A stretch of DNA of 64,000 bases from Bacilli bacterium (GTDB taxonomy: Bacteria; Bacillota_I; Bacilli_A; RFN20; CAG-449), in NCBI GenBank assembly GCA_048359995.1, contig DBGCPK010000005.1, forward strand, positions 56,585 through 120,584, written 5' to 3'. Below, piece after piece: positions 1,395 to 29,504 of this stretch. Every line of letters begins with the position of its first letter. Position 1 is the first letter of the stretch. The translations under genes were made by a program, and so were the position numbers. Under the pieces are notes generated by a model. The model saw nothing but the letters and a program-made list of their open reading frames with translations, was not told where the DNA came from and made no database searches.

Positions 1395-2018
1395 CTATGT
1401 TGTTAGGCATCCCTTATTTTTTTCGCTTAAAATACGGTTCATATGATAATAAAAATTGCAACGTTTTAGTCCGGACAATTTGATGGCTTCAGCAATTGAT
1501 ATTTCTTTTTTGCTTACTTGATAAACAATTTTTATTAATTCATTTTCATAAATTCTTTTAGGGCGACCAAATTTCACCCCACGATTCTTTGCGGCAATAA
1601 TTCCTTCTTTTTGCCTTTGCCGGATGTTGTCGCGCTCGTTCTCTGCAACAAACGATAGAACTTGAAGAACAATATCCGATATAAATTTGCCAACGAGTGT
1701 ATTTGCTTTGGTGCGCGTATCCAAAAGCGGCATATCTAGTACTAAAATATCCGCTTTGATTTCGTTTGTAATATAACTCCATTCGTGAATAATGGAATCA
1801 TAGTTTCTGCCAAGACGATCTATTGACTTGATGATTAGCAAATCATCTTGTTTTAATGTCTGAAGTAATTTTTTATAATTCTCACGTTCAAAATCTTTAC
1901 CGCTTTTTTTGTCTGAAAAAATGAATTTAGGATCAATGCCATAAGCAGTAAAAGCATCAAGCTGTCTTGCTATATTTTGGTCGGTTGCGGATACTCGTGC
2001 ATAAGCATAAGTGGACAT
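1395..2018 (-). CDS. Small serine recombinase (resolvase/Hin-type DNA invertase family)
   Basis: N-terminal catalytic motif YARVSATDQ with the active-site Ser, and a C-terminal HTH. About 207 aa. AAGGAG RBS 6-8 nt upstream of the ATG at 2018. Confidence 0.9.
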   Translation of the reverse strand: MSTYAYARVSATDQNIARQLDAFTAYGIDPKFIFSDKKSGKDFERENYKKLLQTLKQDDLLIIKSIDRLGRNYDSIIHEWSYITNEIKADILVLDMPLLDTRTKANTLVGKFISDIVLQVLSFVAENERDNIRQRQKEGIIAAKNRGVKFGRPKRIYENELIKIVYQVSKKEISIAEAIKLSGLKRCNFYYHMNRILSEKNKGCLTT

Positions 2019-2111
2019 TTGATTTTTCTCCTTGATTATATAAGGATAGCACAAAAGGAAAATTCAAAAAACTAAAACATATGGTTATAGCGGCGCTTAC
2101 AATTAAAAAAA

Positions 2112-3037: not shown

Positions 3038-3571
3038 ATGAAAGAAGAAATAATAAACGCAAATGAAACTACCTTAAAAATTATTTTTGGTTGCTTAGTT
3101 CGTAACGGAGTAGAAAATACTACAATGCGATCGATATGTAATGCGACAGGCTTGACCGCAAGCAGTTTATATTACCGATTTAAGGACAAGGATGAAATTA
3201 TTTTAGAGGCATCCTGTTATGGGCTTAATTCCGTAACAAAAGAATTGTTTTGGGTTGTAACTGAAAAAATTAATAACTTCCAAGTTTTAATTGCTTTTTT
3301 GAAAAATGTTGATACTAGGAAACAATCTATAAAGCTTATTTATCAAGTTTTAAGTAGCCCTAAGTATGGTGAAAAATTTAGAAAAATGACGCATTCAACA
3401 CCGATGGTAATATATAAGTATACTGGGATGTTGTCAGAGAAACTCAATTGCTCGACAGAAGATTGTTGCTATATGTCGGACTTACAATTGCCGTTATTCG
3501 TGAATATGCAATATGGGAAAACAGGGAAAGCACGAAGCGAAAACTTAAATTTATTTACGACAATTGCTTAG
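3038..3571 (+). CDS. TetR/AcrR-family transcriptional regulator
   Basis: N-terminal HTH TTMRSICNATGLTASSLYYRFKDKDEI, typical of TetR; 177 aa. Confidence 0.7.
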   Translation: MKEEIINANETTLKIIFGCLVRNGVENTTMRSICNATGLTASSLYYRFKDKDEIILEASCYGLNSVTKELFWVVTEKINNFQVLIAFLKNVDTRKQSIKLIYQVLSSPKYGEKFRKMTHSTPMVIYKYTGMLSEKLNCSTEDCCYMSDLQLPLFVNMQYGKTGKARSENLNLFTTIA

Positions 3572-3620: not shown

Positions 3621-4661
3621 ATGCTTACTGATTATTATTATAATGAATTGTCCGTCCCTGAACAGGGTGCGTATAATAGTATTAGATTTGCTTTAAACAA
3701 TTCAGAGACTGAATGCACTGTAACTGGAATTAGTTCTAGTGAATCTGCTACACTTGTTTGGAAAGCCGTTGTTTTTGATCATCCGGAAATTATTAATTAT
3801 CCTGGACTGTTTTGTCAGCCGGTAGGTAATGGTGAGAATTTTAGGTTCAGATTTCAATATTCCCAGATTGATAGATATGCTTATGAAGAAAAACTAAATC
3901 GGCTAATAAACAAAATTAACAATAAAATGTCTGCTAATGCGTCAGATTATGTTGCTTGCAAAACAATATTTGATGAGTTAGCATCTTTTATTAAATATGA
4001 AGAAAATGTTTTAGAAGAGTATTTGAACCTTGAGCAAGAGAATTCTTCAGAGACAATAGATTTTATGCGAGACCATAGTACTTCATTTTCTCCATACGGA
4101 ATTCTAATGAATTCTAAAGGAGTGTGCCAAGGAATAGCCAAACTTTTTAAAATTATTTGTGACAGATTTGGCGTTCAATGTGCGTGTGTTGAAGCTAAGA
4201 CATTAAATTGCGGAGCTAATTCGGCAAGCAATCACATGTTAAATGTTGTAGAAATAGATGGGGAACGTGCTTTTGTCGATATAGCAAATAGTTTAAAGAT
4301 TGAAAATCTACCCGTTATTAAATATGATTTTTTCCTTATGCCTCAGCGTATTATCAATAAGACCTTTACAATTATTGGTGAGTTTGGATGCCGTAATGAG
4401 TCATTAAACTATTTTGTTAAAAATAATCTCCGTTTTACATCAATAAATGATTTAAGACGTTATCTTTTATCATATACCTATCGCTCAACGAATGGCGAAG
4501 TAAGGTGCCATTACGATGGAAACAAATTTGATGATAAAAAATTGGAAGACTTATTTTTTTACAATATAAACTACCATTGTCAAGATGGGTATTATATGCA
4601 ATTTGCAAGTGTTAAGAACGGATTCTGTACCGGTCTTATTAAATCAGATTCGGAGGTTTAA
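3621..4661 (+). CDS. Transglutaminase-like cysteine protease superfamily protein
   Basis: Cys-His-Asp arrangement: GVCQGIAKLFKIICDRFGV (Cys), NHMLNVVEI (His), AFVDIA (Asp). Confidence 0.55.
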   Translation: MLTDYYYNELSVPEQGAYNSIRFALNNSETECTVTGISSSESATLVWKAVVFDHPEIINYPGLFCQPVGNGENFRFRFQYSQIDRYAYEEKLNRLINKINNKMSANASDYVACKTIFDELASFIKYEENVLEEYLNLEQENSSETIDFMRDHSTSFSPYGILMNSKGVCQGIAKLFKIICDRFGVQCACVEAKTLNCGANSASNHMLNVVEIDGERAFVDIANSLKIENLPVIKYDFFLMPQRIINKTFTIIGEFGCRNESLNYFVKNNLRFTSINDLRRYLLSYTYRSTNGEVRCHYDGNKFDDKKLEDLFFYNINYHCQDGYYMQFASVKNGFCTGLIKSDSEV

Positions 4662-4664
4662 ATT

Positions 4665-6908
4665 ATGGAAGAAAGCAAAAAAATGAAATGGCAAAAGGAT
4701 TTTGATACTTTTTTCCCGATCTATAACTCATTTATCTTTGAAGGGTTCATTGATGATGATCAGCCATATGAAGACGAAAATGGAGAAATTAAATATTGTA
4801 GGCTTTATGACTATTTTGATAAAGTCTACAGCAATCATACCGATCCAACAAAACGTAAACGTGTAATCATCTATGATCCTACAGAATCAGATGATAAACG
4901 GTTTAAGATTTGCGATGATGATTGTATGCAAGAAGAAGTTGTCGATGAATCAGCAGACAATTTTGATGGAAAACTGAAAAAAGTCATGAATTATATGTCA
5001 TCGCAAATGTCGCAACATTTTTGGGATATAGTACATGATGATGATTTGGACATGCTTTTAATAGATCATAAATCATCTGGTCCTTCGTTAGATTTTTCTC
5101 GTATCCATTACGCTGTTACAGAGGGTAGTGGCCGTATTGCTCCATTCGAAATTCTTGATAAATTTAGAGATATTTTTAATAACCTGTTTGGTAATCCGCA
5201 AAATGGTGAACCAAGTGGGTATTTGTTTGTAATTAAAATGACATCACGTCTTTTATCGCGTGATGGTGCGTCCAACGGCTTGAGCGGTGAAGAGTTAATG
5301 ATATTTAGACAGTTGCTTAACATTGCCCAAAGTCTCGATACTGAAAGCGATAACGCCACGCAGCAACATCAAAGTAATAAGATCATCATTCTTGCAAACC
5401 AAGTGCGGGATTTGCCTATGTGGTTTACAGATGAAATTGCAAATCCGTTTATCAAGCTTATCAATGTATCAAGACCTTCTGAAGAAAATAAACTTGATTA
5501 TTTTAATGAAATGCTTGATAGCGGTTGCTTTAGTCCGCAATTTGTAGCTCGCTATAATGAGATTGATAGTGCTAGTAAAGAAAAAGATGCGCAGGCTAAG
5601 CGTAATCCAGTTGAAAAGAAATTTTTGGCGTATACAAACGATTTTAGTATGAAAATGCTAAGACGTTATAGGGCGTTTATTTCTAATAATCCTATAGATG
5701 ATCCGGCTAAATTGGGCTTTTCAATATCCACGTTCCGTGCCGGTGATATGACAAATCCTTGGGATGACGAAGACCGCATAAAGGATATGCTTAATATCAA
5801 ACAAACGGTAAGCAAAAAAATACAAGGTCAAGATTTTGCTTTAGATACTGCGCAAGCCATTTTAACAAGAGCCGCAATTGGACTTGACCGTGCTGAAAAT
5901 CCTAATGCTCCGCGGGTTATCTTATTTCTTGCCGGTCCGACAGGTACAGGTAAGACTGAACTATGTAAACAAATTGCGGAAAGTATTTTTGGCAGTGAAG
6001 ATAGAATTGTAAGATTTGATATGTCCGAGTATGGACAGGAAGAATCAGATCAAAAGCTTTTTGGTGCGCCTCCAGGATATGTTGGTTATGAAGAAGGCGG
6101 AAAGTTAACAAATGCTGTTAAGAAAGAGCCTTTTTCTCTTATCCTTTTCGATGAAATAGAAAAGGCTCATAATTCTATTCTCGATAAGTTTTTACAAATT
6201 CTTGGTGATGGCAGATTAACCGATGGCAAAGGAGAAACTGTTAGATTCACTGATTGCATTATAGTTATCACTTCAAATGCCGGGGTATTCTCGTTTGACG
6301 GAATGCCGCAGGAAGAAATCGACAAACTCATGAATGGCGATACAAAACCTGAAGGCGAAATGAATATGGACAGAGTTGCCCAGCTTGAGGAAGAATTGGC
6401 TGACGCTAATGGCAATATTTCCGAGCAATCATACTCAGAAATTTACGCAAAAGTAAAAGAACATTTAAGATACAATGTAAAGTCTTATTTCCATTGTAAA
6501 TTGAAGAGACCTGAGTTATACGGTCGTATTGAAGATTCTATAGTTTATTACAATTACATAGGAAAAGAATCAGTTGCAAAAATTGTTAAATCCAAAATTT
6601 CCGACGTAATTAAATCTACAAAAGAATCAATGAATGTTAACGATATTATATGCTCTGACGAAGTAAAAGCGGCAATTGCTCTCTATTGCCAAGATTGCAA
6701 AGTAAGAGCCTTAGGTGCGCGTGGTATTATCAAGAGTACCGGTAAATTATTCACTGGTAGCTTATCTAATTTCCTTTCTGATTATGTTCGTGGAGAGAAC
6801 GGAAAAAGTAAGGGCGATTTATCAGGAAAAACTTTAAAATGCACGTGCAACGAAATAATTTCATCGGCCTATGATATAGTTTGGAGTATCAATGATTGTA
6901 GTATTTGA
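4665..6908 (+). CDS. AAA+ ATPase with ClpA/ClpB D2-type domain (C-terminal) and unknown N-terminal region of about 400 aa
   Basis: LAGPTGTGKTELCK Walker A, a GAPPGYVGYEEGG sensor motif, Walker B LILFDEIEKAH, and LQILGDGRLTDGKGETVRFTDCIIVITSN. All are hallmarks of the Clp/Hsp100 D2 module. Confidence 0.8.
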   Translation: MEESKKMKWQKDFDTFFPIYNSFIFEGFIDDDQPYEDENGEIKYCRLYDYFDKVYSNHTDPTKRKRVIIYDPTESDDKRFKICDDDCMQEEVVDESADNFDGKLKKVMNYMSSQMSQHFWDIVHDDDLDMLLIDHKSSGPSLDFSRIHYAVTEGSGRIAPFEILDKFRDIFNNLFGNPQNGEPSGYLFVIKMTSRLLSRDGASNGLSGEELMIFRQLLNIAQSLDTESDNATQQHQSNKIIILANQVRDLPMWFTDEIANPFIKLINVSRPSEENKLDYFNEMLDSGCFSPQFVARYNEIDSASKEKDAQAKRNPVEKKFLAYTNDFSMKMLRRYRAFISNNPIDDPAKLGFSISTFRAGDMTNPWDDEDRIKDMLNIKQTVSKKIQGQDFALDTAQAILTRAAIGLDRAENPNAPRVILFLAGPTGTGKTELCKQIAESIFGSEDRIVRFDMSEYGQEESDQKLFGAPPGYVGYEEGGKLTNAVKKEPFSLILFDEIEKAHNSILDKFLQILGDGRLTDGKGETVRFTDCIIVITSNAGVFSFDGMPQEEIDKLMNGDTKPEGEMNMDRVAQLEEELADANGNISEQSYSEIYAKVKEHLRYNVKSYFHCKLKRPELYGRIEDSIVYYNYIGKESVAKIVKSKISDVIKSTKESMNVNDIICSDEVKAAIALYCQDCKVRALGARGIIKSTGKLFTGSLSNFLSDYVRGENGKSKGDLSGKTLKCTCNEIISSAYDIVWSINDCSI

Positions 6909-7425
6909 TGAACAATTAAAAGAAGCGCTTGAAAACGCCCAAAAGCTAAAACTGGCGGGAGAAGAAGAACTTTCAAAACAAATGTGTTTAAAATGCGTTG
7001 AGAAAGTTGCGTTATATAATGGCATTGATTTGATTTCGCTATTTTATGAGGACAAAGTATATGACGAAATAAAGGATGTGCCAGATGCTTTAAAGTACAT
7101 TTTTATAGCAAAATGCGCAATGAATGCGTATGACTTAATTTACTCAAAAAATCCGGCGAGCGATTCCGCATCTTCGTGGGCCAAGTGTGATAAAAACAAT
7201 AGCAATAGACCGCTTAGAGGTTTTTTTGAATGGTTACAAAGACGAAATCGATCAGTAGAAGAAAGGGATTGCAACCAATTCAAAATTCTGATCAATGCAA
7301 TGGTTGATTCTGACAATATTTATTTTAAAATGTCAGACCGAGTTGCTCAGTTGCCTTTAGTAGATATATTGAGCATGATAGTATCTGGTTCAATTACCAT
7401 TACTTCCGACGGAGAACTAAGATGA
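6892..7425 (+). CDS. Hypothetical protein (177 aa)
   Basis: ORF overlaps the upstream gene by 17 nt and the downstream gene by 4 nt (translational coupling); no recognisable motif. Confidence 0.55.
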   Translation: MIVVFDEQLKEALENAQKLKLAGEEELSKQMCLKCVEKVALYNGIDLISLFYEDKVYDEIKDVPDALKYIFIAKCAMNAYDLIYSKNPASDSASSWAKCDKNNSNRPLRGFFEWLQRRNRSVEERDCNQFKILINAMVDSDNIYFKMSDRVAQLPLVDILSMIVSGSITITSDGELR

Positions 7426-9191
7426 TTAGCGTAGTAAGATGTAGTAATAGAATGTGTATACAACTCCCAAAGGGTGTTACATGCAAGATTGGGGATATAA
7501 TTCCTTGCCCTAAAAGTTGTACATGCTTCAAAAAAGTTGAATCATTTTCCGTGGCGTCGGTATGGCAAATGGATGAAAAAAAATCCAGCAGTACGGCCAA
7601 ATATTCTGATGAGGAAATTAGAGCATATTGGGGGCAAGAGAATACGTCATCAGCTTCTTCTACCGATAGTGATATGCAAAGTTCAAATGTAGGCGTTAAC
7701 TCGTCCAATACTGCTTTGGGTGTAGAGCGACACGATAATAATCAAGTTGTAGCGAATGCCAATGAATTTGTAAGACAAAAGTCTTTCGGCAGATCACAGC
7801 GTTCTCAGTCCAATAGTGTTCCCGAAGCCGATGCAATATTGAGACCGCAAGAAAATTATGAAAAAATTGAGATTGGTGGTATGCAATTTACTGATAAAAT
7901 GACGATACTATCGTCGGAAATATCGCAGCCTCTCAGAAATGCTTTGTGGTTTATTTTCTCGCATTGGGAAACTCGTTCAGTTTTTAAAACAGAAACAGAA
8001 TTACGTGATGATTTTATTTGGTTGATAACATCGACTTCTAAACGCACTTTTAAGAAAAGTGAAATTGATGCAATATTATTAAATGAAGAATATGGACTTT
8101 CAGAAAAGTTCTTTTATTTGTTTTACGATATTATCTATCGCTACGAGCCGCCTAAAGGGTTTTACTGGTGCGATAAAGTTCTCTCACCTGATCCTTTAAG
8201 CTCATATTTTAGAGATAAAAAAGATTTTGTAGTTAAGTATTGTAATGCATACGCACAAGGCGAGCAATTTCGTTTGTTTTACATGGCACATAAAAAGGAA
8301 ATTTTACACTTTTTAGGCAGCGATAATGAAGAAAAATTGTTTGAAGACATGACATTATCTTTAGCTAAAGATGTCGGAGAAATTGTATTGATAGATAAAT
8401 ACAATAATTACATGCCGATAAATATGGGTAAGATTTCTTCGTTTATTATTAACATGCAGCAGCCAACTGAATTAAACAACATGAGAAACATGGTTAATTT
8501 TTTGGAAAAATATCGTGTAACACGACTTGGCGTTGTTCCTAGAGCTATTGAATACCCGTTCGAAAAATCTGTCAGGGATGATTTACAAGAAGATGTCAGT
8601 ATGTATGCAACTCTGCGATTAAACTCTTCTGCAAGCTACGCATCGGAATATGATTGCTTTGTGACACTCTTACATGAATATGTTAAGGTATTTAATCCCA
8701 GTGAAATTAAAATAGGTGAATTAACATTTACCCAAAGCAATTTTTCTCACGAATTAGAAGAAATTGTAAAAAACCTTTGCAAATCTTATTTTGGACAAGT
8801 CGCAGATGATGTGTTTGCAGACTATAAAAGTCGCGCATGGCTTGCGAAAAGCATATATGACAGGAACATTTTATCGACATATGTGTTAGAAAATAAATCC
8901 TACGTCGATAAGCTTATGAAACTAATTTCTAATCCAACATTAGAGCAATATATATCAATGTTCGATGATTGTGTTATTCAGTTGCATTATAGAGATTTAA
9001 CTATTCATGAATATATTGCAGAATTAGTGAAAGAAGATATTTATACGGTGTGTGGAGAATTTAGAGAAGACAATATTATTCATGAATTCTTCAATTACAA
9101 AATAAAAAATTGGTCTAAAACAAATTTGAGTGAACTGTTTAATAAATATCAGCGGCAATATGAAGCATTCATTAAAGGAGACATACTATGA
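7422..9191 (+). CDS. Hypothetical protein (589 aa) with Cys-rich N-terminus and Ser-rich linker
   Basis: ATGA overlap with the upstream gene. The N-terminus CSNRMC..CPKSCTC suggests a small metal-binding motif, followed by a low-complexity S/T-rich linker and a globular region. Confidence 0.6.
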   Translation: MISVVRCSNRMCIQLPKGVTCKIGDIIPCPKSCTCFKKVESFSVASVWQMDEKKSSSTAKYSDEEIRAYWGQENTSSASSTDSDMQSSNVGVNSSNTALGVERHDNNQVVANANEFVRQKSFGRSQRSQSNSVPEADAILRPQENYEKIEIGGMQFTDKMTILSSEISQPLRNALWFIFSHWETRSVFKTETELRDDFIWLITSTSKRTFKKSEIDAILLNEEYGLSEKFFYLFYDIIYRYEPPKGFYWCDKVLSPDPLSSYFRDKKDFVVKYCNAYAQGEQFRLFYMAHKKEILHFLGSDNEEKLFEDMTLSLAKDVGEIVLIDKYNNYMPINMGKISSFIINMQQPTELNNMRNMVNFLEKYRVTRLGVVPRAIEYPFEKSVRDDLQEDVSMYATLRLNSSASYASEYDCFVTLLHEYVKVFNPSEIKIGELTFTQSNFSHELEEIVKNLCKSYFGQVADDVFADYKSRAWLAKSIYDRNILSTYVLENKSYVDKLMKLISNPTLEQYISMFDDCVIQLHYRDLTIHEYIAELVKEDIYTVCGEFREDNIIHEFFNYKIKNWSKTNLSELFNKYQRQYEAFIKGDIL

Positions 9192-11092
9192 GCTCAATCG
9201 ATAAATATGTTGAAGGTGAAGCCAGATCATACAATCCTAGAGTTAATGTTGTAAAAAGGGGTGGTATGATAAATGGTTATATCGGTGGCAATTTAGTTTT
9301 TTCAATCGCAGACCGATATGGATATTTAAGCGATTCCGAACGCAGTACGATTAGAAACTCAATTCACGAGTATGAGGCAGAAGAGCAAGAGCGTATAAGA
9401 AGAGAACAAATACGCATTGAAAATGAACGCGTCGCTGTGCGAAATGCGCTTAGAAGCTCTGTAGTAGCTACAAAAAATAAAATTAGAGAATCATACAGTA
9501 ACGCTCAACGGGTAAGTCAAGAAGTAGCATCTTCATTGAGCGTTAAGTCAGTTTTGGATTCATTTAAAAAATATAATATTTCTTCATACATAGAACGTGC
9601 ACAAATTTTGGATCGCAAATTAAAAAGTTGTGTAGAGAGATTAGATGGTGAATACAGAAAAAAAATGCAAGAAGTCGAGTCGCTTGAAAGAACAATACGT
9701 GAAGATTCGACGAGACAGACATATATTCAACAGCAGGATTCCTTAAAGAAAATACACGTAAATTTTACTAATGTTGAATTTCCTGTTTCGGAAATTGAGC
9801 AATTAAAGTTTGAAATTGAAAAACTCAGAGAAGCTATTTTGAAAATCGAAAACATCGAAAAAGAACTTAGCAACGTGGCCAATGATGGGCTCATAGGCTC
9901 AATTGCTGCATCAGCTCTTAAAGAGATTAGACAGTTCAATATTAGTTCATTGGATGATGTAAATAAACTCCTTATTAGTGTTCAGGAACATCTTGGTGAA
10001 ATTCGCAATTTGAAATTTCACCAACAAAGCAAGGAGAGAAGCGATCAAATTGCTTTGTTAAACGGTATATTAAAATCGTGCTCGCAATTGCACGAATATT
10101 TGATTAGCCAGCCCTATGAAGCTACAAATAATCGTAGCGAAATAGTTGAGACAGCTAATCGGGTCTTAGGTATTTATTCAGAACTTGATACAGCTACTTA
10201 TTCTACATGCAGCAAAGAAAAAATTAAAGATGCATATGAATTGGTTCAAGAGGTGTTGGTTGGCTCGGCATCTAATGCTCAAACTCTTGAGTATTTAAAA
10301 CGGTTGCTTGAAGAAGGATTTGTATTTAAGCGCGACGACCAGCTTCAAGCAGATAATTATGCGGACTATATAAAAAAATACAACGAAATGATTGAACGCG
10401 GCGTGTCGATCGAAGAAATTGAAGTTTTTGATCCAATTAATTATTCAGAGCAAAAAAAGCGTCTCAATGAAAAACTGCTTGGATTAGATGTTCAAGAGGG
10501 AATAAATAGAACGCGCACGTCCTTTATGATGGCTTGGAAAGTTATGGAGGATATGGGATATCGTCTTCTGTATCAAAATATGGGAAGCGAAGGCGCAGAC
10601 GCATTAGCTTGCGAAGGTTTATTTGTTAAACCCGGTTATGAGGGGGTTGTATGGCAAGTTGTTGCTTCAGATTGCAATATAACTCGAAAGATAATAGGCG
10701 TTGAAAGGACAAGCGGTTTATCTACTTCAATCCAAAGAGTTAGAGAAGTCGCAGAAATAACAGAGCGCGACGGTGAAGTACAGGAATTCTTTGAGCGATA
10801 TGCAGAAGAAGGCGGTGGTGAACTTCTAGTCACAACTGATGTATATACTGGTTCTCCGGAATGCGAGCAAGCTATTCAAAGCAATGGATGTTTCAAGCTG
10901 TCAGAAGAAGGCGAAAAATGTTTAGATAAATTAGTGGAAACCGATGATGAGAATGCTAAAAAGAAAGGGCGCTCTCGTCTTAGAGCAGGAGAAGGAACAC
11001 CAGTCCAAACTCACGGAGTATCTCATAGTGTGCGTGAACAAGAGTCGCTGAGCGCTAATTCTAGAATAGTTGCCCAAAGAGCTAAGAAGTAA
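9188..11092 (+). CDS. Hypothetical protein (634 aa), coiled-coil rich
   Basis: ATGA overlap. Long heptad-like E/K/R/L-rich stretches and no catalytic motif. Confidence 0.6.
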   Translation: MSSIDKYVEGEARSYNPRVNVVKRGGMINGYIGGNLVFSIADRYGYLSDSERSTIRNSIHEYEAEEQERIRREQIRIENERVAVRNALRSSVVATKNKIRESYSNAQRVSQEVASSLSVKSVLDSFKKYNISSYIERAQILDRKLKSCVERLDGEYRKKMQEVESLERTIREDSTRQTYIQQQDSLKKIHVNFTNVEFPVSEIEQLKFEIEKLREAILKIENIEKELSNVANDGLIGSIAASALKEIRQFNISSLDDVNKLLISVQEHLGEIRNLKFHQQSKERSDQIALLNGILKSCSQLHEYLISQPYEATNNRSEIVETANRVLGIYSELDTATYSTCSKEKIKDAYELVQEVLVGSASNAQTLEYLKRLLEEGFVFKRDDQLQADNYADYIKKYNEMIERGVSIEEIEVFDPINYSEQKKRLNEKLLGLDVQEGINRTRTSFMMAWKVMEDMGYRLLYQNMGSEGADALACEGLFVKPGYEGVVWQVVASDCNITRKIIGVERTSGLSTSIQRVREVAEITERDGEVQEFFERYAEEGGGELLVTTDVYTGSPECEQAIQSNGCFKLSEEGEKCLDKLVETDDENAKKKGRSRLRAGEGTPVQTHGVSHSVREQESLSANSRIVAQRAKK

Positions 11093-11685
11093 TGCAGATA
11101 GAAAGGGCTATGCTAGGGATAAGAACTTTAGGTCCCGGCAATAGATTTGTTATTTGGGTTAATGGTTGCTACCGTAAATGTGCTGGTTGCGTTTCAAAAC
11201 GCTTACAAGCTTTTAACCCTTTTAATGAGCAAGACGTTATTAAATATATATCGCAATTTAGCTTGAGTGAGATTGCCGGGGTAACTATATCTGGGGGAGA
11301 GCCTTTTGAACAGTATACAGATTTATGCAAAGCCGTTAAATACTTTAATCAACAAGGCATTGAGGACATCTTAATTTATACTGGTTATACTTTTGATGAG
11401 CTGAAAGATAAAAAAAACGCAGAGATTAATTACATTTTAGAACACATCGCTGTTTTAATTGATGGTCCGTATGTTCAAAAACTAGATAGTGGATATGGGA
11501 ATCTAAAGGGTAGCGATAATCAAAGAGTAATCATTTTAAACCCCAAAGTAAAACGGCTATATGTTGAGTATTATAGTCCGACTCGAACAATGCAAGAGTT
11601 TTATATCGGCAATATAGTTTTGGCAGCAGGTATTCCCGATGAAGATTATATTAAGAAATTTAGAAATGCAAAAGGAGATCAATGA
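11092..11685 (+). CDS. Radical SAM protein, NrdG-like (anaerobic RNR activase family) small activase
   Basis: DGPGNRFVIWVNGCYRKCAGCVS contains CxxxCxxC and closely parallels the NrdG motif GPG..SGCxHxCPGC. Also a GGEPF SAM-binding motif; 197 aa. Confidence 0.7.
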   Translation: MQIERAMLGIRTLGPGNRFVIWVNGCYRKCAGCVSKRLQAFNPFNEQDVIKYISQFSLSEIAGVTISGGEPFEQYTDLCKAVKYFNQQGIEDILIYTGYTFDELKDKKNAEINYILEHIAVLIDGPYVQKLDSGYGNLKGSDNQRVIILNPKVKRLYVEYYSPTRTMQEFYIGNIVLAAGIPDEDYIKKFRNAKGDQ

Positions 11686-13691
11686 TGGCAGACTCAACTT
11701 TATGTACCGCTGAATATTATTTTGAGTACAAAATTGAAAGAGTTTCTGGAGATGAAAAAGCGATAAAGACTCCTAAAATTTATTTTGAGAGAGATTACCG
11801 CACCTCAAATCTTCCATATACGATGTTTGCAGTTCCTGAAGAATGGTTAAATCAACAGGATCTTGTGAATAGTCTTAAGGGCGAAACAGATGCCGAGACA
11901 GTCAAAAAGATACTCTCAAAATTACCATATGACACGATAAACGTTGTGTTTGATATTAAAGGCATAGCCTGCGCACCTTTAGGCGATGTTAAAAGTATTG
12001 AATACGAAAAAGCAGAGATTCACTTGCCTGATCAAACATTTGAAAAGTTTTATCAAGCAGGTTGTCGTCTTACAATTGAAAACAATAATTCCGAAGATCA
12101 TTCAGGAATAGGTGTCATTGAGATGATTAAAAATAAAGTTACAGTAGCAAAATTTTTCTTTGCCGTCAACTTTACGTTCCGAAAAGATATATCTTATGAA
12201 TTAGAAGTTTCGGGTAAATCTGTAAACATTGAATTTAAATGTAAAGACCGTCCTACTGGTATAGAGGTCGTCATTGTATATAACAAGGATAGGCTTCCTT
12301 GTTTATGCAACGATATGGGCGTTAATATGGTAACGTCGCCGTTTACTTTGGATTTCTCCAAAGGTGAGACATTTCGCAAGACAATACCACTAACAGGTGA
12401 AGCTGCAGCGCAAGGGAATATTTTCTCTATTGCAATAAGAAATCGGCAAATGGCCAAGTATTACATTCTAAATTGCGAAAAGAATACATCTCTTCCGAAT
12501 CAAAGCGATAAAAAAATCAAATCGACTGTTAGCTATACATGTCCATTTTGTCATAAGAAGATAAATTATAGTATTTCAAAAAGCGCCAGATACAAAAAAG
12601 GTGGTACATCGTGTAGCTCAATTGAGGATGCAAAAAGCGGTAAGAAGATACCCACAATTTATAACAAACACAAGGCCAAAGTTAAAAAATGTCTGTTCTG
12701 TTCTGAAGATTTAATGGTAAAAGATAACTCTAGTTTTCAAGATTTAAGAAGACGATTGCTCCCGCTCTCATTCATGGAGCACGACAATTATAAAATTGCT
12801 TTTGCCGGTTCAACAAGAGCTGGTAAGACAACTTATATTTCCAGGTTCTTTGGTATCTCAGGTGACACAAGAATTAGTATGCCAATGACAATGGCTACAA
12901 ATAGCCTAAAACGTTTTGGAATCTATATTAAGTCTGCACCGATACTAGAAGTTAAAAGGGGTACTGAAGGTTATCAATTAACGGACACTAATTGGCCAGA
13001 TATTCAGAAAGAATACATAGAACGTTCAATAGACCTAAATGCAAAAAAATATCCTGAAAGAACTACGACTGGTGATTATACATCATATCCTTTTATTGCT
13101 GAAGTAAACGATAACGCTTATATTTCCTTTTATGATATTGCCGGTGAAGATGCACAGCATTCTATGCTTATTAAGAACATTGCAAATGGTGAACTTATAG
13201 GAATCTTTTGTTTAATTAACGGAAAAACAGATATCGGTGGCAATAGTGATGTTATTAATATGTTAAAGGGTGCAGCACAGAAAGATAAAGACAAGCGCGA
13301 TGATGTTGTAGTTGATAAAAGGTGCCCAATAGCAGTGGTAGTTACAAAAATGGATATGTTAGAGCCTGAATTTGATCCGAATTGTCAATGTTTAAGAAGT
13401 GACTATTTTGATGGCGGCACAATATATGAAGGCAGTGAAATTGAAAGAGTCATAAATATTTCAAGTGAAGAAATTAAGTCGTATTTAAAACAGCATGCAT
13501 TATTGCCGGAATTTGAAGGTTTATATGAGAACGTAAAATACTTCGGGGTTTCATCATTCAATTTTATGGACAGCATACATAATAAGTTGGAGGATATAAA
13601 TACGCCAGGAAAAGTTAAATTTGAATGTTCATCAAAACGAATGGAGCTTCCTTTCCTGTGGATGCTTAAACAATTTGGTGTAATTAGATAA
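11682..13691 (+). CDS. P-loop GTPase (TRAFAC class) with N-terminal domain containing a Cys4 zinc ribbon
   Basis: G1 AGSTRAGKTT, G3 DIAGED and G4 TKMD in the correct order and spacing. An upstream CPFCHKK...CLFCSED Zn-ribbon. Confidence 0.7.
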   Translation: MMADSTLCTAEYYFEYKIERVSGDEKAIKTPKIYFERDYRTSNLPYTMFAVPEEWLNQQDLVNSLKGETDAETVKKILSKLPYDTINVVFDIKGIACAPLGDVKSIEYEKAEIHLPDQTFEKFYQAGCRLTIENNNSEDHSGIGVIEMIKNKVTVAKFFFAVNFTFRKDISYELEVSGKSVNIEFKCKDRPTGIEVVIVYNKDRLPCLCNDMGVNMVTSPFTLDFSKGETFRKTIPLTGEAAAQGNIFSIAIRNRQMAKYYILNCEKNTSLPNQSDKKIKSTVSYTCPFCHKKINYSISKSARYKKGGTSCSSIEDAKSGKKIPTIYNKHKAKVKKCLFCSEDLMVKDNSSFQDLRRRLLPLSFMEHDNYKIAFAGSTRAGKTTYISRFFGISGDTRISMPMTMATNSLKRFGIYIKSAPILEVKRGTEGYQLTDTNWPDIQKEYIERSIDLNAKKYPERTTTGDYTSYPFIAEVNDNAYISFYDIAGEDAQHSMLIKNIANGELIGIFCLINGKTDIGGNSDVINMLKGAAQKDKDKRDDVVVDKRCPIAVVVTKMDMLEPEFDPNCQCLRSDYFDGGTIYEGSEIERVINISSEEIKSYLKQHALLPEFEGLYENVKYFGVSSFNFMDSIHNKLEDINTPGKVKFECSSKRMELPFLWMLKQFGVIR

Positions 13692-13703
13692 CGGGGGTAT
13701 TTT

Positions 13704-16184
13704 ATGATACAATATCTTTATTTTCATACTGGCAAAGAATATGTTTCAAAACTTAGTCTTGGAAGATCCGAGGAAGGCTACTCGGACAATGAAATGCTTT
13801 TTGAAACGGTTCGAAAATCCGTGGAAGGGAATACATTTACATATGCGCCTGTTGGTAGTGAAGATGCGATTTTTATGCAAGCTTCAAAAGGTCCGGATGG
13901 CTTATTTACAAAAGGCTTAAGGGGTAACATAGGCGCCATTTCGAATGCTCCGGCAAAATACATAGATAAGTTTGAGAAAAATCCGTTACCAACCTATTGC
14001 AATTCAGAAAAATTGCCTGAAGGGGAACTTCCACCTATAGGCAGACTTCAAGATGACTTCTCATTGGCAAGAGATTTGCATCATATTTTTCCCAAATTAG
14101 TTGATATTCTTCTTTTTGGAAACACAAGTAAAAACATAGTAATTTTGACTGAAACACCTTTGAAAGCTATGAACTATATTAAAGTTCTAAGTGTGCTTTT
14201 GCCATTATCTTTTATGAAGAAAATCGGCTTTTGCATCGGCGCAGCCAATATCCCTGATGAAGATTTTTCTATCATAAAAAATGATGGAAATACTGAGTCA
14301 TTATCTATACGTATTTGGCTTCCAGAATCAAGAAATTATATTTTTGAGTCTCTAGCATCATATTACTATGTATTTGATACTAGAGCGCAAGGTGAAAACT
14401 ATCGTGATAATTACAATCAAGAGCTTAGTACAACAGCTAAGGTTTTAGATGAAATAAATCTCTGCGACCAAAATCAAACAAAGAGGTTTTCTGACTATAT
14501 AGCAAGTGCATTTGATTCACATGGTAATTTGAATGCCGCAGTCTTAAAGAGAAACTCAGCATTGTTCATGTTTGAAGTCAAGCGGGATGTAGATTCTGCA
14601 AAGGAAATTTTGAATATGGGCTTCGATGGGGGCGATATACAAGAACATGCATTTACACGAGCAGCCTCAATATTATTACGCCAAGAAAATATTCAATATT
14701 TATCACTACAAAATAAAAATGCGATAGTATTGGGATATAAAAAGAACAATCGTATTGCTCAAGAACTTGAAAGCTCTTTATTTGACTATTTGTCAACCAC
14801 ATATGCATCACTCGTGCCCGATGAGAAAAAATTGTTTGCCGAAATGGTCTATAATGACGTATCTGGCAAACGGTTGAATTCCTATTTAAAAAAATCGCTA
14901 CGCGGTGATTTCCAAGCAAGAGTAGATGCATTTGATTTTTCAAGTAAAATTTTAGATGTCGCGTTAAAACAGTCAGGCAATAATCTATACTCGATTAAAG
15001 ATTTGGTTAAGACAGTAGTGGAATTCTTTGATATTGGTGATTGTTTTAGAATCATTCCACCTGGTCAAATGACATCAGGTGAAGCCTTCTTTAACTGCAT
15101 TCCACAGTATGAGAGGACTGAGTTACGGCAACTTATGACGGCCATATTACTTTCTTCTGCATACAAAAAATTGGTGCCGGAAGATCATTGTGAAATCAGA
15201 TTGAGAGGTTTTAAAAAGATATTGCCCAATATCGATGAGAAACATATAAATCAGTTTGAATTCATTTTGGGAGTAAGAAATAAAATTCTTGAAATATCGG
15301 AGTTAATACCTGAATTGGATATTGAAAATCAGTTTGATTTCTTATTTAATATTAAGTTCGGTGAATTTTTTGTTTCAGAATTTATACAGAGGCTATCCGT
15401 TGAAGAAGCGTTAGATGCAGAAAAGCTTGTAAAAAGTCGTACATCACAACGATTATTTTATGAGAGTATGTCTACTGCGATCAGAGCAAAATTATTGGAT
15501 ATTAAATTTGTCAAAAAACATATAAAAAGTGGAGCCGTCGCATCTGAACGATACATAGAATTTTTCAGAACATTACCCCAAGACAAAAAAAGTGAAGCCG
15601 CAGAGATTGATTCATATCTTTCCGAATTGAATCACGAGTTTGACATTAATGAAGAATTCGGCCATTATCGTTATGGTTTTGCTCAGGAATGTTATAATAC
15701 ACTTTCTGCTGATAACCAAAACGAAATTAAACAGAGTATAAGTCAACGAAAAGCAAAAGATACATCATTGGATGAGAGATTACTTTTTGTTGAAGAGATA
15801 ATACGCGTTTTTGGTACGATTAAAGGACATAAAAGAAAAGGAAGACTTTCATATTGCGGCATATTCTTATGGGCTTTTGGGTTTAGCCTATTGTCTATGC
15901 TAATCTTGAGTCTTCCTGCTATTATTTTTCCGGCAAGTTTGGGAACGTGCGATTCCGCACATATCTTGGAAAAGTTTATATATTACTTTAAACCGTATTT
16001 ATTGGCTTTGCCTGTTTATGTATTTTTGCTTGAACTGGTAATTTATTTTTGCTTTAAACAAGGCAACAGATTGAAAAGAGCAAACATTATTACAATTCTT
16101 TGTGGAATACTTCCGATAGTGATTTTTACATTATCCTGTGTTTTCTTCTATTACATTAGAATTGATTTACCTTTTAGTCTGTAA
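13704..16184 (+). CDS. Large hypothetical membrane protein (826 aa), soluble N-terminal region plus about four C-terminal TM helices
   Basis: C-terminal 150 aa consists of hydrophobic helices (GIFLWAFGFSLLSMLILSLPAIIF, YLLALPVYVFLLELVIYFCF, IITILCGILPIVIFTLSCVFFYYI). Confidence 0.6.
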   Translation: MIQYLYFHTGKEYVSKLSLGRSEEGYSDNEMLFETVRKSVEGNTFTYAPVGSEDAIFMQASKGPDGLFTKGLRGNIGAISNAPAKYIDKFEKNPLPTYCNSEKLPEGELPPIGRLQDDFSLARDLHHIFPKLVDILLFGNTSKNIVILTETPLKAMNYIKVLSVLLPLSFMKKIGFCIGAANIPDEDFSIIKNDGNTESLSIRIWLPESRNYIFESLASYYYVFDTRAQGENYRDNYNQELSTTAKVLDEINLCDQNQTKRFSDYIASAFDSHGNLNAAVLKRNSALFMFEVKRDVDSAKEILNMGFDGGDIQEHAFTRAASILLRQENIQYLSLQNKNAIVLGYKKNNRIAQELESSLFDYLSTTYASLVPDEKKLFAEMVYNDVSGKRLNSYLKKSLRGDFQARVDAFDFSSKILDVALKQSGNNLYSIKDLVKTVVEFFDIGDCFRIIPPGQMTSGEAFFNCIPQYERTELRQLMTAILLSSAYKKLVPEDHCEIRLRGFKKILPNIDEKHINQFEFILGVRNKILEISELIPELDIENQFDFLFNIKFGEFFVSEFIQRLSVEEALDAEKLVKSRTSQRLFYESMSTAIRAKLLDIKFVKKHIKSGAVASERYIEFFRTLPQDKKSEAAEIDSYLSELNHEFDINEEFGHYRYGFAQECYNTLSADNQNEIKQSISQRKAKDTSLDERLLFVEEIIRVFGTIKGHKRKGRLSYCGIFLWAFGFSLLSMLILSLPAIIFPASLGTCDSAHILEKFIYYFKPYLLALPVYVFLLELVIYFCFKQGNRLKRANIITILCGILPIVIFTLSCVFFYYIRIDLPFSL

Positions 16185-16201
16185 GAGGAGGGAATAGAGA
16201 A

Positions 16202-17155
16202 GTGGCTAGTAATAAAAAGAAAGATAAAGCAATAGGCGCCTTTTCAATTATCGCCATCATTCTATGTGTTTGCGCACTTTGCCTTGGCTTCATAAAAAGT
16301 CAGTCTGAAGATTTGTACTTCAATCTTGAAAAGGCAAAACAGGTTGAAATATCTAGTATCGAAGATATCATTGCATTAGGTGAAGCAATCTACAACGATG
16401 AGTGTGTTCTAACCAAAGATATTCATATTACTGAAAATGGTTTTAGAATCGGAACAACTAAAAGACCGTTTGCGGGAACATTTGACGGTAGAGGACATAC
16501 TATATATTTGGATTACAATTTCGCTAATCAAAATACATCATTATTTAGCTGTATTGAAGCTTCTGGAGTGATTAAGAACACTCGATTTGTATTTGGCAAT
16601 ATAGCGGTTGAGGGTAATACATTTGGTGGCATTGCGAAGATCAATTACGGAACAGTTCAAGATTGCAAGATTGAATGTGCAGATATCAAAATCGATAATA
16701 ACATAGGTATCTATTCACCTTGTGTGATAACCAACAATGGTACGATAGCAAATATAGTAGTGGATTGCTCTTTTTCTAATTCACAAATATATGACAATGA
16801 AGCATCGATATTATTTGGCGGCATATGTACATATAATTATGGAACTGTAAAAAATTGCATTGTTGCCCCGACATTCAATAACATTGTTTGCTCGGATGAA
16901 TTTAAGATTCTTGTGGGAGAAACAACTAATGTTGGAGTAAGTGCAATTTGTGCAGTAAACACGAGTGAGGCATCAACTACTAACTCGGTGGCAATTCTAC
17001 AAACCGGTGTATATACTTCAGACAAGAATAGTGGATTAAAAATCGCTAGCGATTATAGTAGTATTACCAATGAGGACACGATTTTCTTTGATTTGGATTT
17101 CAATAATCGTGTTTGGGAAATTCAAAACAATAAACTAGTTCTTATAGAGGGTTAA
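16202..17155 (+). CDS. Membrane-anchored surface protein with parallel beta-helix-like repeats
   Basis: GTG start preceded by GAGGAGGG. N-terminal signal-anchor helix. GTFDGRGHTIYLDY-type repeat motif, followed by N/G/T-rich beta-strand repeats. Confidence 0.55.
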   Translation: MASNKKKDKAIGAFSIIAIILCVCALCLGFIKSQSEDLYFNLEKAKQVEISSIEDIIALGEAIYNDECVLTKDIHITENGFRIGTTKRPFAGTFDGRGHTIYLDYNFANQNTSLFSCIEASGVIKNTRFVFGNIAVEGNTFGGIAKINYGTVQDCKIECADIKIDNNIGIYSPCVITNNGTIANIVVDCSFSNSQIYDNEASILFGGICTYNYGTVKNCIVAPTFNNIVCSDEFKILVGETTNVGVSAICAVNTSEASTTNSVAILQTGVYTSDKNSGLKIASDYSSITNEDTIFFDLDFNNRVWEIQNNKLVLIEG

Positions 17156-17159
17156 GAAT

Positions 17160-20100
17160 ATGAACGACAAAATTACTGCAAAGAATGGAATAATTAAGAT
17201 ACTTTCAATTATCGTTGTTGCGATATTAGCAATTGCGGTAACTGTTATTGGCATCTTATTGCTCAATAAAGATTCAAACACTGAAAATGCAAGCTATAGC
17301 ATCATTGTCGATGATGAAATTACAATATATGAGGGAGATACATTTACTTTAGTTCCATATTTGGTAAACAAGGATGGAACGGTAGTTGAATCTCGCTTTG
17401 ATTATTCGGCATCTGATAAGGCTATATCTGTTAATGTTGACGGTGTGATTTCCGTAAACTCAATTCCCGAAAATGATGTCCACGTATCAATTTATGAGCG
17501 CAACACGTCTACAACTGCTGAAGTAAACGTTAATATCGTCGGTAGACTCACTAAAGTCTTGGGCATTACTTTCAGCGATTTAGCTGGAAATAAGATGTTG
17601 GTGTCGGGCACACAGAATTTAAAATTAGGTGAAACTTATATCATTGACGTAGTGACTGAACCACGTAATGTCGAAATTGAGAATTATTGTCTTTTGCAGG
17701 CTCTGAATTCGAGCGGTACTGAAAAGAATGTATTTGAATTTGCATACACCAAAACTAATGTTAGTATGACGGCAGTTGGTCTTGGATCTGGAACATTGCT
17801 GCTCGATATAACAAATGACGATAATCAGTCCATATACGATACTGATTTCGATTTTTCCGTCTCGATGTCTGATGAGAATCTTAGCGAAGAGATACTGAAT
17901 AGTACTAATACAACTTTATTATCAAAAGAAGAGCTTAACAAAATTGAAAAAGTTGAGTTGAGTCAAAATGTTTCAAATTTAGATGGTTTACAAAATTTAA
18001 CATCATTAAAAACGGTTGTATTTACAGCTGATGAGGTAATGAATATTGAGAATATCTCTCAGAACTATTGTTACAGAATTAAAACAAATTTGTTTGAGAA
18101 TTATCTAGATGCGAATAATTGGGCAGATTATTTAAAATGTATAATTCCTTATGAAGAAAGTGCTGATGAACTTTTTATTGTATATCATAATGCAAAGACT
18201 GCAACAGGAGAGGAAAATGTTGTATATGAAAGGTTAGAGAATATTGCAAATTTTCCTACTTATATTTTTGAGGGATATACGAATTTTGGATGGTTAGATG
18301 GAACCGAAACAGAGGTATCTTTATCTCAAGTTAAGGCTTCCGTAAAGAGTAATGGCATACATTTATATGCCGGTTGGAATCCTATATCATATAAAGTTGT
18401 TTATCACATTAGAGATTCTGAGGTCGCTAACAAAGAAGAGATCTTTTATTACGATACAGAATATTTACTTAAAGTGCCTAACGAGATTGATAGTTCAATA
18501 ACTCATACTGGATATAAATTTGCTGGTTGGACACGTAATAGAAATTCAAATACTTTCTCACCTAATGTGCAATTTAGGAATGGCGACGCTATCTCTAATT
18601 TAACTAGCGAAGCTGATGCTATTATAGATTTGTATGATATTTGGGAGCCAATAGAATATACGGTTATTTTTTCATCTGTCGAAGGGATGGAAGAGATTGC
18701 AGACCTTACAGCAAAATATAATACAGCATATACGTTACCGACACCATCTAGACCCGGTTATGCATTTAATTATTGGAAGCTTAATAACGGAGATATATTG
18801 AATGCAGGGATACAAGATCCTAACCTTGATTCCGAATTAAATTTATCAAGTATTGAAGGCGCAGAAATAATTCTTACTCCAGATTTCACTGAAATAACCT
18901 ATACAATAACATTTAGGCTAAATGGAGGTCAAGCCCTTCAGGATCTGTCATTTGTAGATGGATACAGAAAGACATTGTATTATGAGGAAGAATATACTTT
19001 ACCCTATTTAACTAAAGAAGGGTATACGAGATATTACTGGCTTTGTGCTGAAAATGGTAAACAATATAAACTAGATGAGAATAACAAAGGACCAAAACTT
19101 TTACAAGAATTTACTACAGCATGCGAGGTAACATTCTCTGCGGTTTGGACGTCAGCAGAATACAGTATTAATTATGATTGCAATGGTGGTAATATTGCCG
19201 GAGATAGTTATGTGACAGATACAAGATTTTGGGACGATGGTGGTTCCTTGTTAACGCCTCAAAGAATAGGATATACTTTCGTAAAATGGCAAGATATTGA
19301 TCATGAAGATATTAGCTATGTTCCCGAAGATGCCGGATGGACAAGCAACTTAATTAAGTCTGCGCAAGAGGATGGTGCCGAATTCAATTTTAAAGCCGTA
19401 TGGCAAATAAATTACTACGATCTCACTATATCAACTGGTGCGGGAACTAGCTTATCTGTTAAAGTAAACGATCAAACTAAACTTGACGGTACGTATAGTG
19501 TCGCATATAATAGCACAATTACTGTTAGTTATAGTGCAAATACAGGGTATAGTAATGCCGAATGCACTTTCCCTGGCGGTAATATGCCTGCTAATAATCT
19601 AACAATAAAGTCTAGTGCTACAATCAATAAACATAATGTAACAATCATTATTGGCAGTGGCTCATATATGACTGTAAACATAGGCGGGACATCATATTCG
19701 AACAACCAAACAGTTAAAAATGTAGCTTATGGAACTTCAATTTCTGTTTCAAACTATGGTGCTACTAACGGTTATCATGACGGTTGGGCTTCATGCGATT
19801 ATAGCACGATGCCGGATTATGATATTACAGTTAGCTCTGGAGCTACACCAGATTCATGTTTTACAAAGGGAACAATGTTAATGCTAGGAGATGGGACTTC
19901 AGTTGCCGTTGAAAATCTCAGAATCAACGATATAATTTTAGCATTTGATCATTCCACGGGACAGTATGTTGAAAGTCGAATACTTTATACTTATTATGGC
20001 TACGATTATGTACCGTCAATTGAACTATATTTCTCCAATAAAGCAGTTCTCGAATTCTTAAATGTAGGACATGGTCTTTTTGATGCTACGATGAATGAAT

Positions 20101-29374: not shown

Positions 29375-29389
29375 AAAAAGAAAAAGGGA

Positions 29390-29421
29390 AAAGCAAGAGG
29401 AAAAAATCTTGCTTTTTTTGT
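29390..29421 (+). terminator. Rho-independent terminator after hup
   Basis: Stem AAAGCAAGA/TCTTGCTTT with an 8-nt loop, followed by a T7 tract. Confidence 0.7.
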
Positions 29422-29504
29422 TGAAAACGAATACAAAGGATAAATTTCTTGTGAATATCCGCGCTTTTTTGTAAAATAGAGAAGAATCGTAAAGGAGACG
29501 GATT

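Follow-up and report, generated by a model that had tools for sequence, protein, structure and literature searches.

A compact radical S-adenosylmethionine (SAM) enzyme of the glycyl-radical activase type is encoded on the 64-kb window described here (the window being the whole stretch of DNA analysed, 64,000 nucleotides (nt)), as the sixth gene of a conserved ten-gene cassette at 3621-20543. The product of this gene 6 is intact and predicted to be catalytically competent. Judged by its sequence, it is not a ribonucleotide-reductase activase and belongs to a separate, widespread and so far uncharacterised clade. Members of this clade are almost always encoded near AAA+ proteins, in the window a ClpB-like one, and the hydrogen donor of the enzyme may be a protein on which this partner acts.

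In the current view, a glycyl-radical activase is dedicated to an oxygen-sensitive metabolic enzyme of an anaerobe. The sister clade described here is large, lacks such a partner, is tied to a protein unfoldase and resides in mobile cassettes together with kinase signalling and anti-phage-like helicase-nucleases. If these enzymes act on proteins, activase-type radical chemistry would no longer be limited to the glycyl-radical enzymes, would reach aerobes and might have a part in immunity. If true, this would also suggest a role for genes at the flank of a core defence hotspot of Pseudomonas aeruginosa (PMC10250203). The window offers a compact and conserved ten-gene test case, which stems from a cassette of gut Clostridia.

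The radical-SAM enzyme and the search for its partner

Gene 6 is tightly embedded between its neighbours, since its start shares 1 nt with the stop codon of gene 5 and its stop codon shares 4 nt with the start of gene 7 (coordinates are given in Table 1). For its product, Pfam reports Fer4_12 (E 8.3e-31), and the top NCBIfam model is NrdG (TIGR02491, E 1e-27), which is matched with 97.0 bits against a curated cut-off of 126.1. This is followed by a second NrdG model, the pyruvate formate-lyase (PFL) activase with 43 bits and other glycyl-radical activases, all of them under their cut-offs. A QueE model is absent among the 15 NCBIfam matches, and a phmmer search of the protein against the PDB returned nothing.

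An alignment of 25 homologues with 48-90% identity contains 48 invariant columns, namely the three cysteines and GGEPF plus 40 others. The invariant blocks are L13-G-P-G16 and R18, W22-V-N-G-C26 followed by C30 and C33, S67-G-G-E-P-F72, Y96-T-G98, V121-L-I-D-G-P-Y127, N137, G140-S141 as well as N143-Q144. This set amounts to the signature of NrdG, and hence the gene is real and evolves under purifying selection. A preliminary description of this DNA had called the gene NrdG-like on account of its conserved CxxxCxxC and GGEPF motifs. This has been borne out by the alignment and by TIGR02491 as the top model, and a loss of the motif cysteines in orthologues, named there as a point that would speak against it, was not encountered, as the triad is retained in all 74 relatives gathered.

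The AlphaFold model of the enzyme, built on the homologue alignment, reached a mean predicted local distance difference test score of 94.4. A Foldseek search of the PDB with this model yields at E<0.001 the PFL activase alone (3C8F and 8FO0), and the structural matches are radical-SAM enzymes throughout. The sequence and fold features typical of the radical-SAM superfamily, namely CxxxCxxC, a GGE-type SAM motif and a partial TIM-barrel fold, are present.

The same description had found no glycyl-radical partner in the neighbourhood, and this holds for the window. Gly_radical, NRDD and PFL-like Pfam domains were detected neither on the 20 open reading frames (ORFs) scanned between 48 and 26047 nor on the ten largest ORFs in the remainder, 30 ORFs in all. 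These ten are housekeeping genes, encoding among others lysyl-tRNA synthetase, Hsp90, a ClpA/C-type ATPase, PurA, PurB and an FtsX permease. A tblastn search of the window with four NrdD proteins, recovered from other loci of this analysis, gave no match. The expression R[VICT]xG[FYW] occurs in two minus-strand ORFs of the window only, at 29117-29524 and 32326-33117, both of which lie outside the cassette. No cassette protein contains the glycyl-radical motif RVxG[FYW] or one of the three domains, and NrdD is present in none of eight cassette loci. Gene 3 was considered as a GrcA-like spare part due to its C-terminal IVSGS sequence and ruled out, since the glycine is replaced by histidine in locus L009 and the C-terminal half is missing in L001.

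The cassette consists of ten plus-strand ORFs, which overlap or are separated by gaps of at most 17 nt. A contig search with the single enzyme sequence as query gave 4 loci. Cassette look-ups were performed for homologues at 90, 77, 60, 54, 51 and 49% identity, the last of these representing two distinct loci, and every look-up gave the ten cassette genes in unchanged order. This order is shared by eight distinct Clostridia loci, whose hosts are metagenome-assembled genomes of Candidatus Coproplasma, Eubacteriales and Christensenellaceae, all of them gut anaerobes. The flanks are unrelated and consist, depending on the locus, of spoIIGA/sigE, AcnX, TldD/PmbA, or HD-domain or aminotransferase genes. 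Since they differ between the loci, the cassette is a unit that moves.

The AAA+ partner and the wider enzyme clade

Gene 2 of the cassette encodes a two-tier AAA+ protein. In its C-terminal half, the Walker A motif GPTGTGKT (residues 424-431), the pore loop GYVG (471-474) and the Walker B residues D496/E497 are invariant in 40 of 40 homologues. The same is true for N538, RPE (615-617) and GxRG (684-687), which represent the arginine and sensor motifs. On these motifs, this half is predicted to be an active-type polypeptide translocase module resembling the D2 domain of ClpB. The other, N-terminal half looks like an AAA domain that has degenerated; it lacks a P-loop, in whose place the motif 'hhhhGNhxD' is found, followed by 'hhhhDhaSR' and 'N...DLP.W....NP......P....R'.

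To a large extent this partnership is preserved outside the Clostridia cassette. A scan of the JGI metagenomes with an alignment of the enzyme family gave 80 loci with 29-43% identity. Using phmmer and ORF clustering, a homologue of gene 2 (ClpB-like AAA+, ~600 amino acids (aa)) was found beside the enzyme in 46 of 74 loci. Well-flanked loci were defined as those with at least 2.5 kb on both sides (n=28), and AAA+ genes were counted within 7 kb. Here, 23 loci contain an AAA+ protein, which is ClpB-like in 18, a classical AAA in 3 and a two-domain AAA in 2 cases; four of the remaining loci contain NrdD and one contains neither. The classical AAA neighbours have 508 aa and an AAA_lid_3 domain, the two-domain neighbours ~860 aa and AAA_lid_6. 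Loci with other AAA+ families beside relatives of the enzyme are L044, L064, L036, L045 and L070 as well as L023, L033, L042, L075 and L078.

A neighbour-joining tree of 75 sequences places the NrdD-adjacent proteins on a separate branch. They contain DGPG and end shortly past the GS.NQ motif. The AAA-associated proteins including that of the window display [L/N]GPGxR and an extension of ~45 residues, which ends in a hydrophobic strand and GIP/GFP. With NrdG (TIGR02491), the window enzyme has in common the compact core, the GPGxR loop before CxxxCxxC, GGEP, DGP[YF] and GS.NQ. It differs in having leucine instead of the Asp/Asn found in the [D/N]GPGxR loop of NrdD-linked NrdG and in its additional helix/hairpin/helix extension; the TIGR02491 profile comprises 154 positions compared to the 197 aa of the enzyme. 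Membership in the NrdG family therefore fails in three respects, as the score is below the cut-off, a linkage to nrdD is not seen and the architecture is different.

It is still conceivable that the enzyme is an activase of the usual kind and only by chance has its place in the cassette, while the gene of its glycyl-radical enzyme (NrdD, PFL or another) lies outside the window in the same genome. NrdG is indeed the top named match and the 64-kb window shows only a part of the genome. However, a linkage to nrdD in related genomes, which the preliminary description had named as a point against its own reading, was not found among the orthologues with 49-90% identity, which all lie in the same cassette. 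More distantly, an AAA+ gene is the neighbour in 23 of the 28 loci, and NrdD accompanies the extension-less branch only. Furthermore, the C-terminal extension and the altered loop are specific to the clade, the score stays under the NrdG cut-off and the gene is translationally coupled to both neighbours. The incidental-position explanation is therefore regarded as highly improbable.

The pairwise identities of the enzyme and of the AAA+ protein from the same loci are strongly correlated (Mantel r 0.88; 0 of 2000 permutations). This correlation speaks for co-inheritance and not for contact. The AAA+/radical-SAM pair is a portable two-gene core within variable, horizontally mobile cassettes.

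Two arrangements are found in the distant loci. In the first, the order is AAA+, radical-SAM, FHA, PP2C, an unknown and a Ser-Thr kinase. In the second, AAA+ and radical-SAM are followed by a Pkinase-DUF4011-helicase-REase protein of ~2100 aa and an unknown of ~450 aa. The ~2100-aa protein matches the PADLOC models PDC-S37 (7e-149) and Hhe (4e-64) and, under the cut-off, the NCBIfam anti-phage ProA model (8e-152). This four-gene unit is common in Pseudomonas, where it adjoins MerR (7166-17299 in L099/L100), and is also present on a Rhizobium plasmid (7172-17268 in L097). The core defence hotspot cDHS1 of P. aeruginosa has a conserved flank, which is apparently this Pseudomonas unit; the flank genes are mentioned in passing, with no function given for the radical-SAM gene (PMC10250203).

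The pair is located on a conjugative plasmid of Rhizobium leguminosarum between transposase genes of insertion sequence (IS) elements, and a second example is found on a plasmid of Aristaeella (Clostridia). In both, the proteins are annotated merely as 'AAA family ATPase' and '4Fe-4S single cluster domain-containing protein'. The hosts of the clade include Rhizobium, Arthrobacter, Rhodococcus, Calothrix, Geminocystis and many Pseudomonas, so that actinobacteria and cyanobacteria are represented, and the clade is found in aerobes as well as in anaerobes. A phage origin was considered and rejected, as the GenBank phage matches are ordinary T4-type nrdG with ~31% identity and a search of IMG/VR brought up no member of the clade.

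In the distant cassettes, a further protein of ~400-590 aa without annotation was observed, which has a long coiled coil and a shared C-terminal domain with conserved 'hGY' and 'WC' motifs. It occurs as the families F12 (L035, L039-L041, L053, L081), F20 (L051, L065, L086, L092) and F24 (L059, L084, L096), which are mutually homologous by hhalign with 61-92% probability, and it may be a third core component of the distant systems. The accessory proteins of the Clostridia cassette gave no hhalign match above 50% probability to FHA, PP2C or the families F12, F16, F17, F18, F20, F22, F23 and F24. A likeness of gene 5 to F12/F20/F24, suggested by its 'MS..' start, coiled coil and hGY domain, was unsupported with a best probability of 14%.

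The ten-gene cassette and its surroundings

The features of the cassette and the motifs of the enzyme are collected in Table 1.

Table 1. Genes of the cassette and motifs of the radical-SAM enzyme, with positions in the window.
Feature	Position	Strand	Description
Gene 1	3621-4661	+	Transglutaminase-like cysteine peptidase or transglutaminase, 346 aa; Pfam EDR1_CTR1_ARMC3_pept 5.7e-6, Transglut_core 0.005
Gene 2	4665-6908	+	Two-tier AAA+ protein, 747 aa; Pfam AAA_2 2.4e-42; ClpB TIGR03346 6.7e-62, sub-threshold
Gene 3	6892-7425	+	Helical protein, 177 aa; poorly conserved, 111 aa only in L001
Gene 4	7422-9191	+	589 aa; N-terminal Cys-rich (CP..C) motif, low-complexity linker, C-terminal helical domain
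Gene 5	9188-11092	+	634 aa; small N-terminal beta domain, ~400 aa coiled coil, C-terminal alpha/beta domain starting MGY (456-458)
Gene 6	11092-11685	+	Compact radical-SAM enzyme of NrdG/PFL-activase type, 197 aa; ATG at 11092, stop 11683-11685
Gene 6, LGPGNR loop	11128-11145	+	Residues 13-18; L13, G14, P15, G16, R18 invariant
Gene 6, CxxxCxxC [4Fe-4S] cluster motif	11167-11190	+	C26/C30/C33; invariant in 25-sequence alignment and 74 relatives
Gene 6, GGEPF SAM-binding motif	11293-11307	+	Residues 68-72; invariant (25-sequence alignment), preceded by S67
Gene 6, C-terminal extension	11539-11682	+	Residues ~150-197; helix 151-160, beta-hairpin 167-180, invariant GIP 180-182, helix 184-192 (AlphaFold model)
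Gene 7	11682-13691	+	669 aa; N-terminal domain, Zn ribbon (CPFCH...C..C), TRAFAC-type GTPase (GSTRAGKTT, DIAGED, TKMD)
Gene 8	13704-16184	+	826 aa; large soluble region, then hydrophobic C-terminal multi-pass membrane segment; cassette-conserved
Gene 9	16202-17155	+	317 aa; N-terminal membrane anchor, then repetitive beta-rich region
Gene 10	17160-20543	+	1127 aa, last cassette gene; N-terminal membrane anchor, Listeria-Bacteroides (Flg_new) repeats, Hint autoprocessing domain from residue ~900

Gene 1, which is present in all cassette loci, additionally matches the NCBIfam transglutaminase-related model MAG6410 (8.5e-13) and contains GVCQGIA and HMLNV..D; a signal peptide is not evident from its sequence. 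Genes 4 and 8 gave no family match in Pfam, NCBIfam or PADLOC. Among the eight orthologues of gene 7, weak Pfam matches to Roc were obtained for six (best 2e-4) and to DO-GTPase2 for three (best 0.0036), and its N-terminal domain contains an invariant S141-G142-x-G144. Profiles of genes 5 and 7 against the PDB returned noise, one Zn-ribbon match and coiled-coil matches only.

For gene 10, Pfam reports Flg_new (1.1e-14) and Hom_end_hint (0.0025), and its orthologues range from 1104 to 3903 aa, the largest being encoded in L011. The Hint domain begins with 'CFTKGT' at residue ~897, and an 'ANGLLAC' block is followed by ~85 more residues. This architecture recalls bacterial intein-like autoprocessing or polymorphic toxins. 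Compared to PADLOC v2, the cassette proteins matched no catalogued system; the matches of gene 2 to PDC-M37B (2e-26) and DolB (2e-21) cover the generic ATPase core only (residues ~370-540).

In the window, the G+C content is 33-38% from ~2 to 26 kb and 29% at 26-28 kb, the enclosing sequence having 41-48%. On the left, this low-GC stretch is bordered by genes for a serine resolvase (1395-2054, minus strand), a NusG-like protein (2393-2968) and a TetR protein (3038-3571). The cassette is followed by a DUF2225 gene (20579-21208), by several genes for unknown proteins and, at 23196-24506, by the gene of a TrwB/VirD4-like coupling ATPase. The lowest-GC stretch at 26047-28004 (29%) forms the right edge and contains a single ORF of at least 150 aa (26707-27180, minus strand). 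A housekeeping Clp-family ATPase (Clp_N, AAA, AAA_lid_9, AAA_2), unrelated to gene 2, is encoded at 41918-43939 in the higher-GC part.

The resolvase, NusG, TetR and DUF2225 genes are also present in the 90%-identical loci L014-L016 and absent in the loci of other species. Since these flank genes are shared with L014-L016 only, the cassette at this locus may be carried on an integrative mobile element. The window was checked for tRNA genes as integration site and contains none. Promoter-like sites are not enriched in the window (82 compared to 81.8 in shuffled sequence), and terminator-like sites number 20 compared to 10.5 (standard deviation 3.7) in the shuffles.

Proposed mechanism and comparison with known systems

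Because the closest relatives of the enzyme all abstract a hydrogen atom from a protein glycine, and because the partner threads polypeptides, it is proposed, with nearly even credence, that the enzyme takes its hydrogen atom from a protein on which the AAA+ partner acts. Here, the reduced [4Fe-4S] cluster would cleave SAM to the 5'-deoxyadenosyl radical, which would take a hydrogen atom from the polypeptide held or unfolded by the AAA+ protein. The protein-centred radical could then modify, cleave or switch on a cassette component or a target. The product would not be a long-lived catalytic glycyl radical for metabolism, and a transient radical seems more plausible. Since glycyl radicals are destroyed by oxygen with cleavage of the backbone (PMC13450708), a stored catalytic radical is unlikely as a general product. 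To the AAA+/radical-SAM pair, the Clostridia operon adds a transglutaminase-like peptidase, three unknowns, a Zn-ribbon GTPase, one protein of the membrane and two of the surface, and the cassette as a whole may well have a role in conflict or defence.

Several observations weigh against this proposal. A correlated divergence is expected of any two linked genes, and in the cassette of the window three genes intervene between the AAA+ and the radical-SAM gene. As to conflict or defence, the Clostridia cassette lacks a recognisable nuclease or toxin effector as well as a PADLOC system match, and its flanks in other genomes are housekeeping genes and not defence islands. Finally, the cassette ends with two genes for surface proteins, and these would suit a function in the cell envelope as well as one in defence.

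In another explanation, the Clostridia cassette would be an assembly or secretion pathway of the envelope for the large Hint surface protein and not an immunity system, with the enzyme maturing a component of the machine. Genes 8-10 encode a membrane protein and two anchored surface proteins, carrying Flg_new repeats and Hint and varying from 1104 to 3903 aa in the last gene; the AAA+ protein, the GTPase and the peptidase would be plausible parts of an export machine, and the housekeeping flanks agree with this. However, Pfam and NCBIfam gave no match of any component to a known secretion system, and at other loci the AAA+/radical-SAM core is accompanied by genes for kinases, helicases and nucleases of the kind usually seen in defence. 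An envelope pathway is therefore considered unlikely. It bears on what the cassette does for the cell, and the proposed enzymatic mechanism could hold alongside it.

Regarding the substrate, the preliminary description had pointed to the proteins encoded at 7422-11092 or 13704-16184, or to a small molecule. This was supported in part. Gene 5 is kept as a candidate target, for this cassette only. Its family is restricted to the cassette (68 clusters at E<1e-30 in a profile search of 1.84 billion representatives). Its N-terminus MSSIDK (nt 9188-9205) is kept in 79 of 80 homologues, with an identity otherwise down to 25%, which suggests that this start is recognised or modified, be it by the AAA+ protein, the transglutaminase-like peptidase or the radical-SAM enzyme. 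D42, R43 and G45, which form a D-R-x-G loop within 'ADRYGY' (residues 42-46, nt 9311-9325), are likewise kept in 79 of 80 homologues, and in the model this loop follows a three-stranded sheet. The model is confident and mostly helical, and Foldseek against the PDB gives coiled-coil noise only.

Due to this loop, gene 5 is also the best candidate for a stable glycyl radical on a novel, non-canonical cassette protein. Its stop codon overlaps the start of the enzyme gene by 1 nt, the D-R-Y-G-Y loop is conserved in otherwise ~25% identical homologues, it lies after a beta strand and loosely resembles the NrdD site RRITGYL (L063, L085), and the hosts of the cassette are anaerobic gut Clostridia. 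Several details speak against gene 5 both as target and as glycyl-radical protein, however: the spacing is one residue off RVxG[FYW], one homologue reads DRHDW and several have Val/Ile after the glycine. Furthermore, the protein is mostly coiled coil with neither a glycyl-radical barrel nor a fold match in the PDB. The family is confined to the cassette, whereas the enzyme clade is far wider and includes aerobes, where oxygen destroys glycyl radicals. A glycyl-radical site in gene 5 is thus very doubtful.

A more far-reaching form of the proposed hydrogen abstraction can be envisaged, which is rated as rather unlikely. The pair would be a protein-processing machine of a novel kind, in which the unfoldase feeds or exposes a polypeptide to the activase-like enzyme and a hydrogen atom is removed from the backbone. 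The carbon-centred radical would cleave the chain in oxygen-exposed hosts, and it could cross-link or epimerise it in anaerobes. The radical chemistry would thus serve a widespread system of immunity or conflict as its irreversible switch or as the step that kills, and the Clostridia cassette would be a specialised version of this system, possibly acting on MSSIDK or D-R-Y-G-Y of gene 5.

Among the known systems, the PFL activating enzyme (3C8F, 8FO0) is 17-22% identical to the window enzyme and longer (245 compared to 197 aa), and neither a PFL-type enzyme nor RVxGY is found near the latter. The restriction to anaerobes or facultative anaerobes, which is expected of glycyl-radical activases given the oxygen lability of the radical (PMC13450708), is not seen in the enzyme clade.

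Alternatively, the substrate might be a small molecule or nucleotide as for QueE or viperin. The product would then have a signalling or antiviral function, and the AAA+ protein would act as sensor or regulator and not as a handler of the substrate. The enzyme resembles these families only remotely. QueE (PDB 5TGS, 6NHL, 4NJG) has no model that matches it, and QueC, QueD, FolE and TGT were not detected in the cassette with Pfam and NCBIfam. The prokaryotic viperins (pVips), whose profiles comprise 257-262 positions compared to 197 aa, match in the generic radical-SAM core only (E 1e-5 to 5e-4); the PADLOC pVip match has an E of 3e-4 over residues 24-127 only. The NCBIfam viperin model gives 15.5 bits (E 0.0072) against a cut-off of 180, so that a full-length viperin match is not obtained. 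Viperins are not known to be paired with ClpB-like AAA+ proteins. Since the sequence is far nearer to the protein-radical activases (NrdG 97 bits, PFL activase 43 bits), Foldseek singles out the PFL activase and the constant partner is a polypeptide translocase and not a nucleotide-handling enzyme, a small-molecule substrate is held to be rather doubtful.

Literature searches gave no account of a ClpB-like AAA+ protein that forms a pair with a radical-SAM enzyme of activase type, the only trace being the passing mention in PMC10250203. In the GTPase-centric conflict systems built on DO-GTPases (Kaur et al., 2020; PMC7159879), a large protein associated with the membrane comes after the GTPase (DO-GTPase/GAP1). 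Similarly, the product of gene 7 has a Zn ribbon as well as a TRAFAC GTPase with Glu after the Walker B glycine (DIAGED), and the next gene is gene 8, which encodes a large membrane-associated protein. Nevertheless, the resemblance of gene 7 is weak (DO-GTPase2 in three of eight orthologues), GAP1 or GASH domains were not detected, and the radical-SAM/ClpB-like pair is not described in that paper.

In Pseudomonas and Rhizobium, the genes for relatives of the enzyme and of its AAA+ partner are directly followed by that of a Hhe/ProA/PDC-S37 protein. The window cassette has neither a helicase-nuclease nor a kinase, and hhalign revealed no kinship between its accessory proteins and those of the distant cassettes. 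In the benzylsuccinate synthase operon, a MoxR-type AAA+ protein (BssE) is encoded beside the activase, and this would be the nearest precedent for an ATPase-assisted activation.

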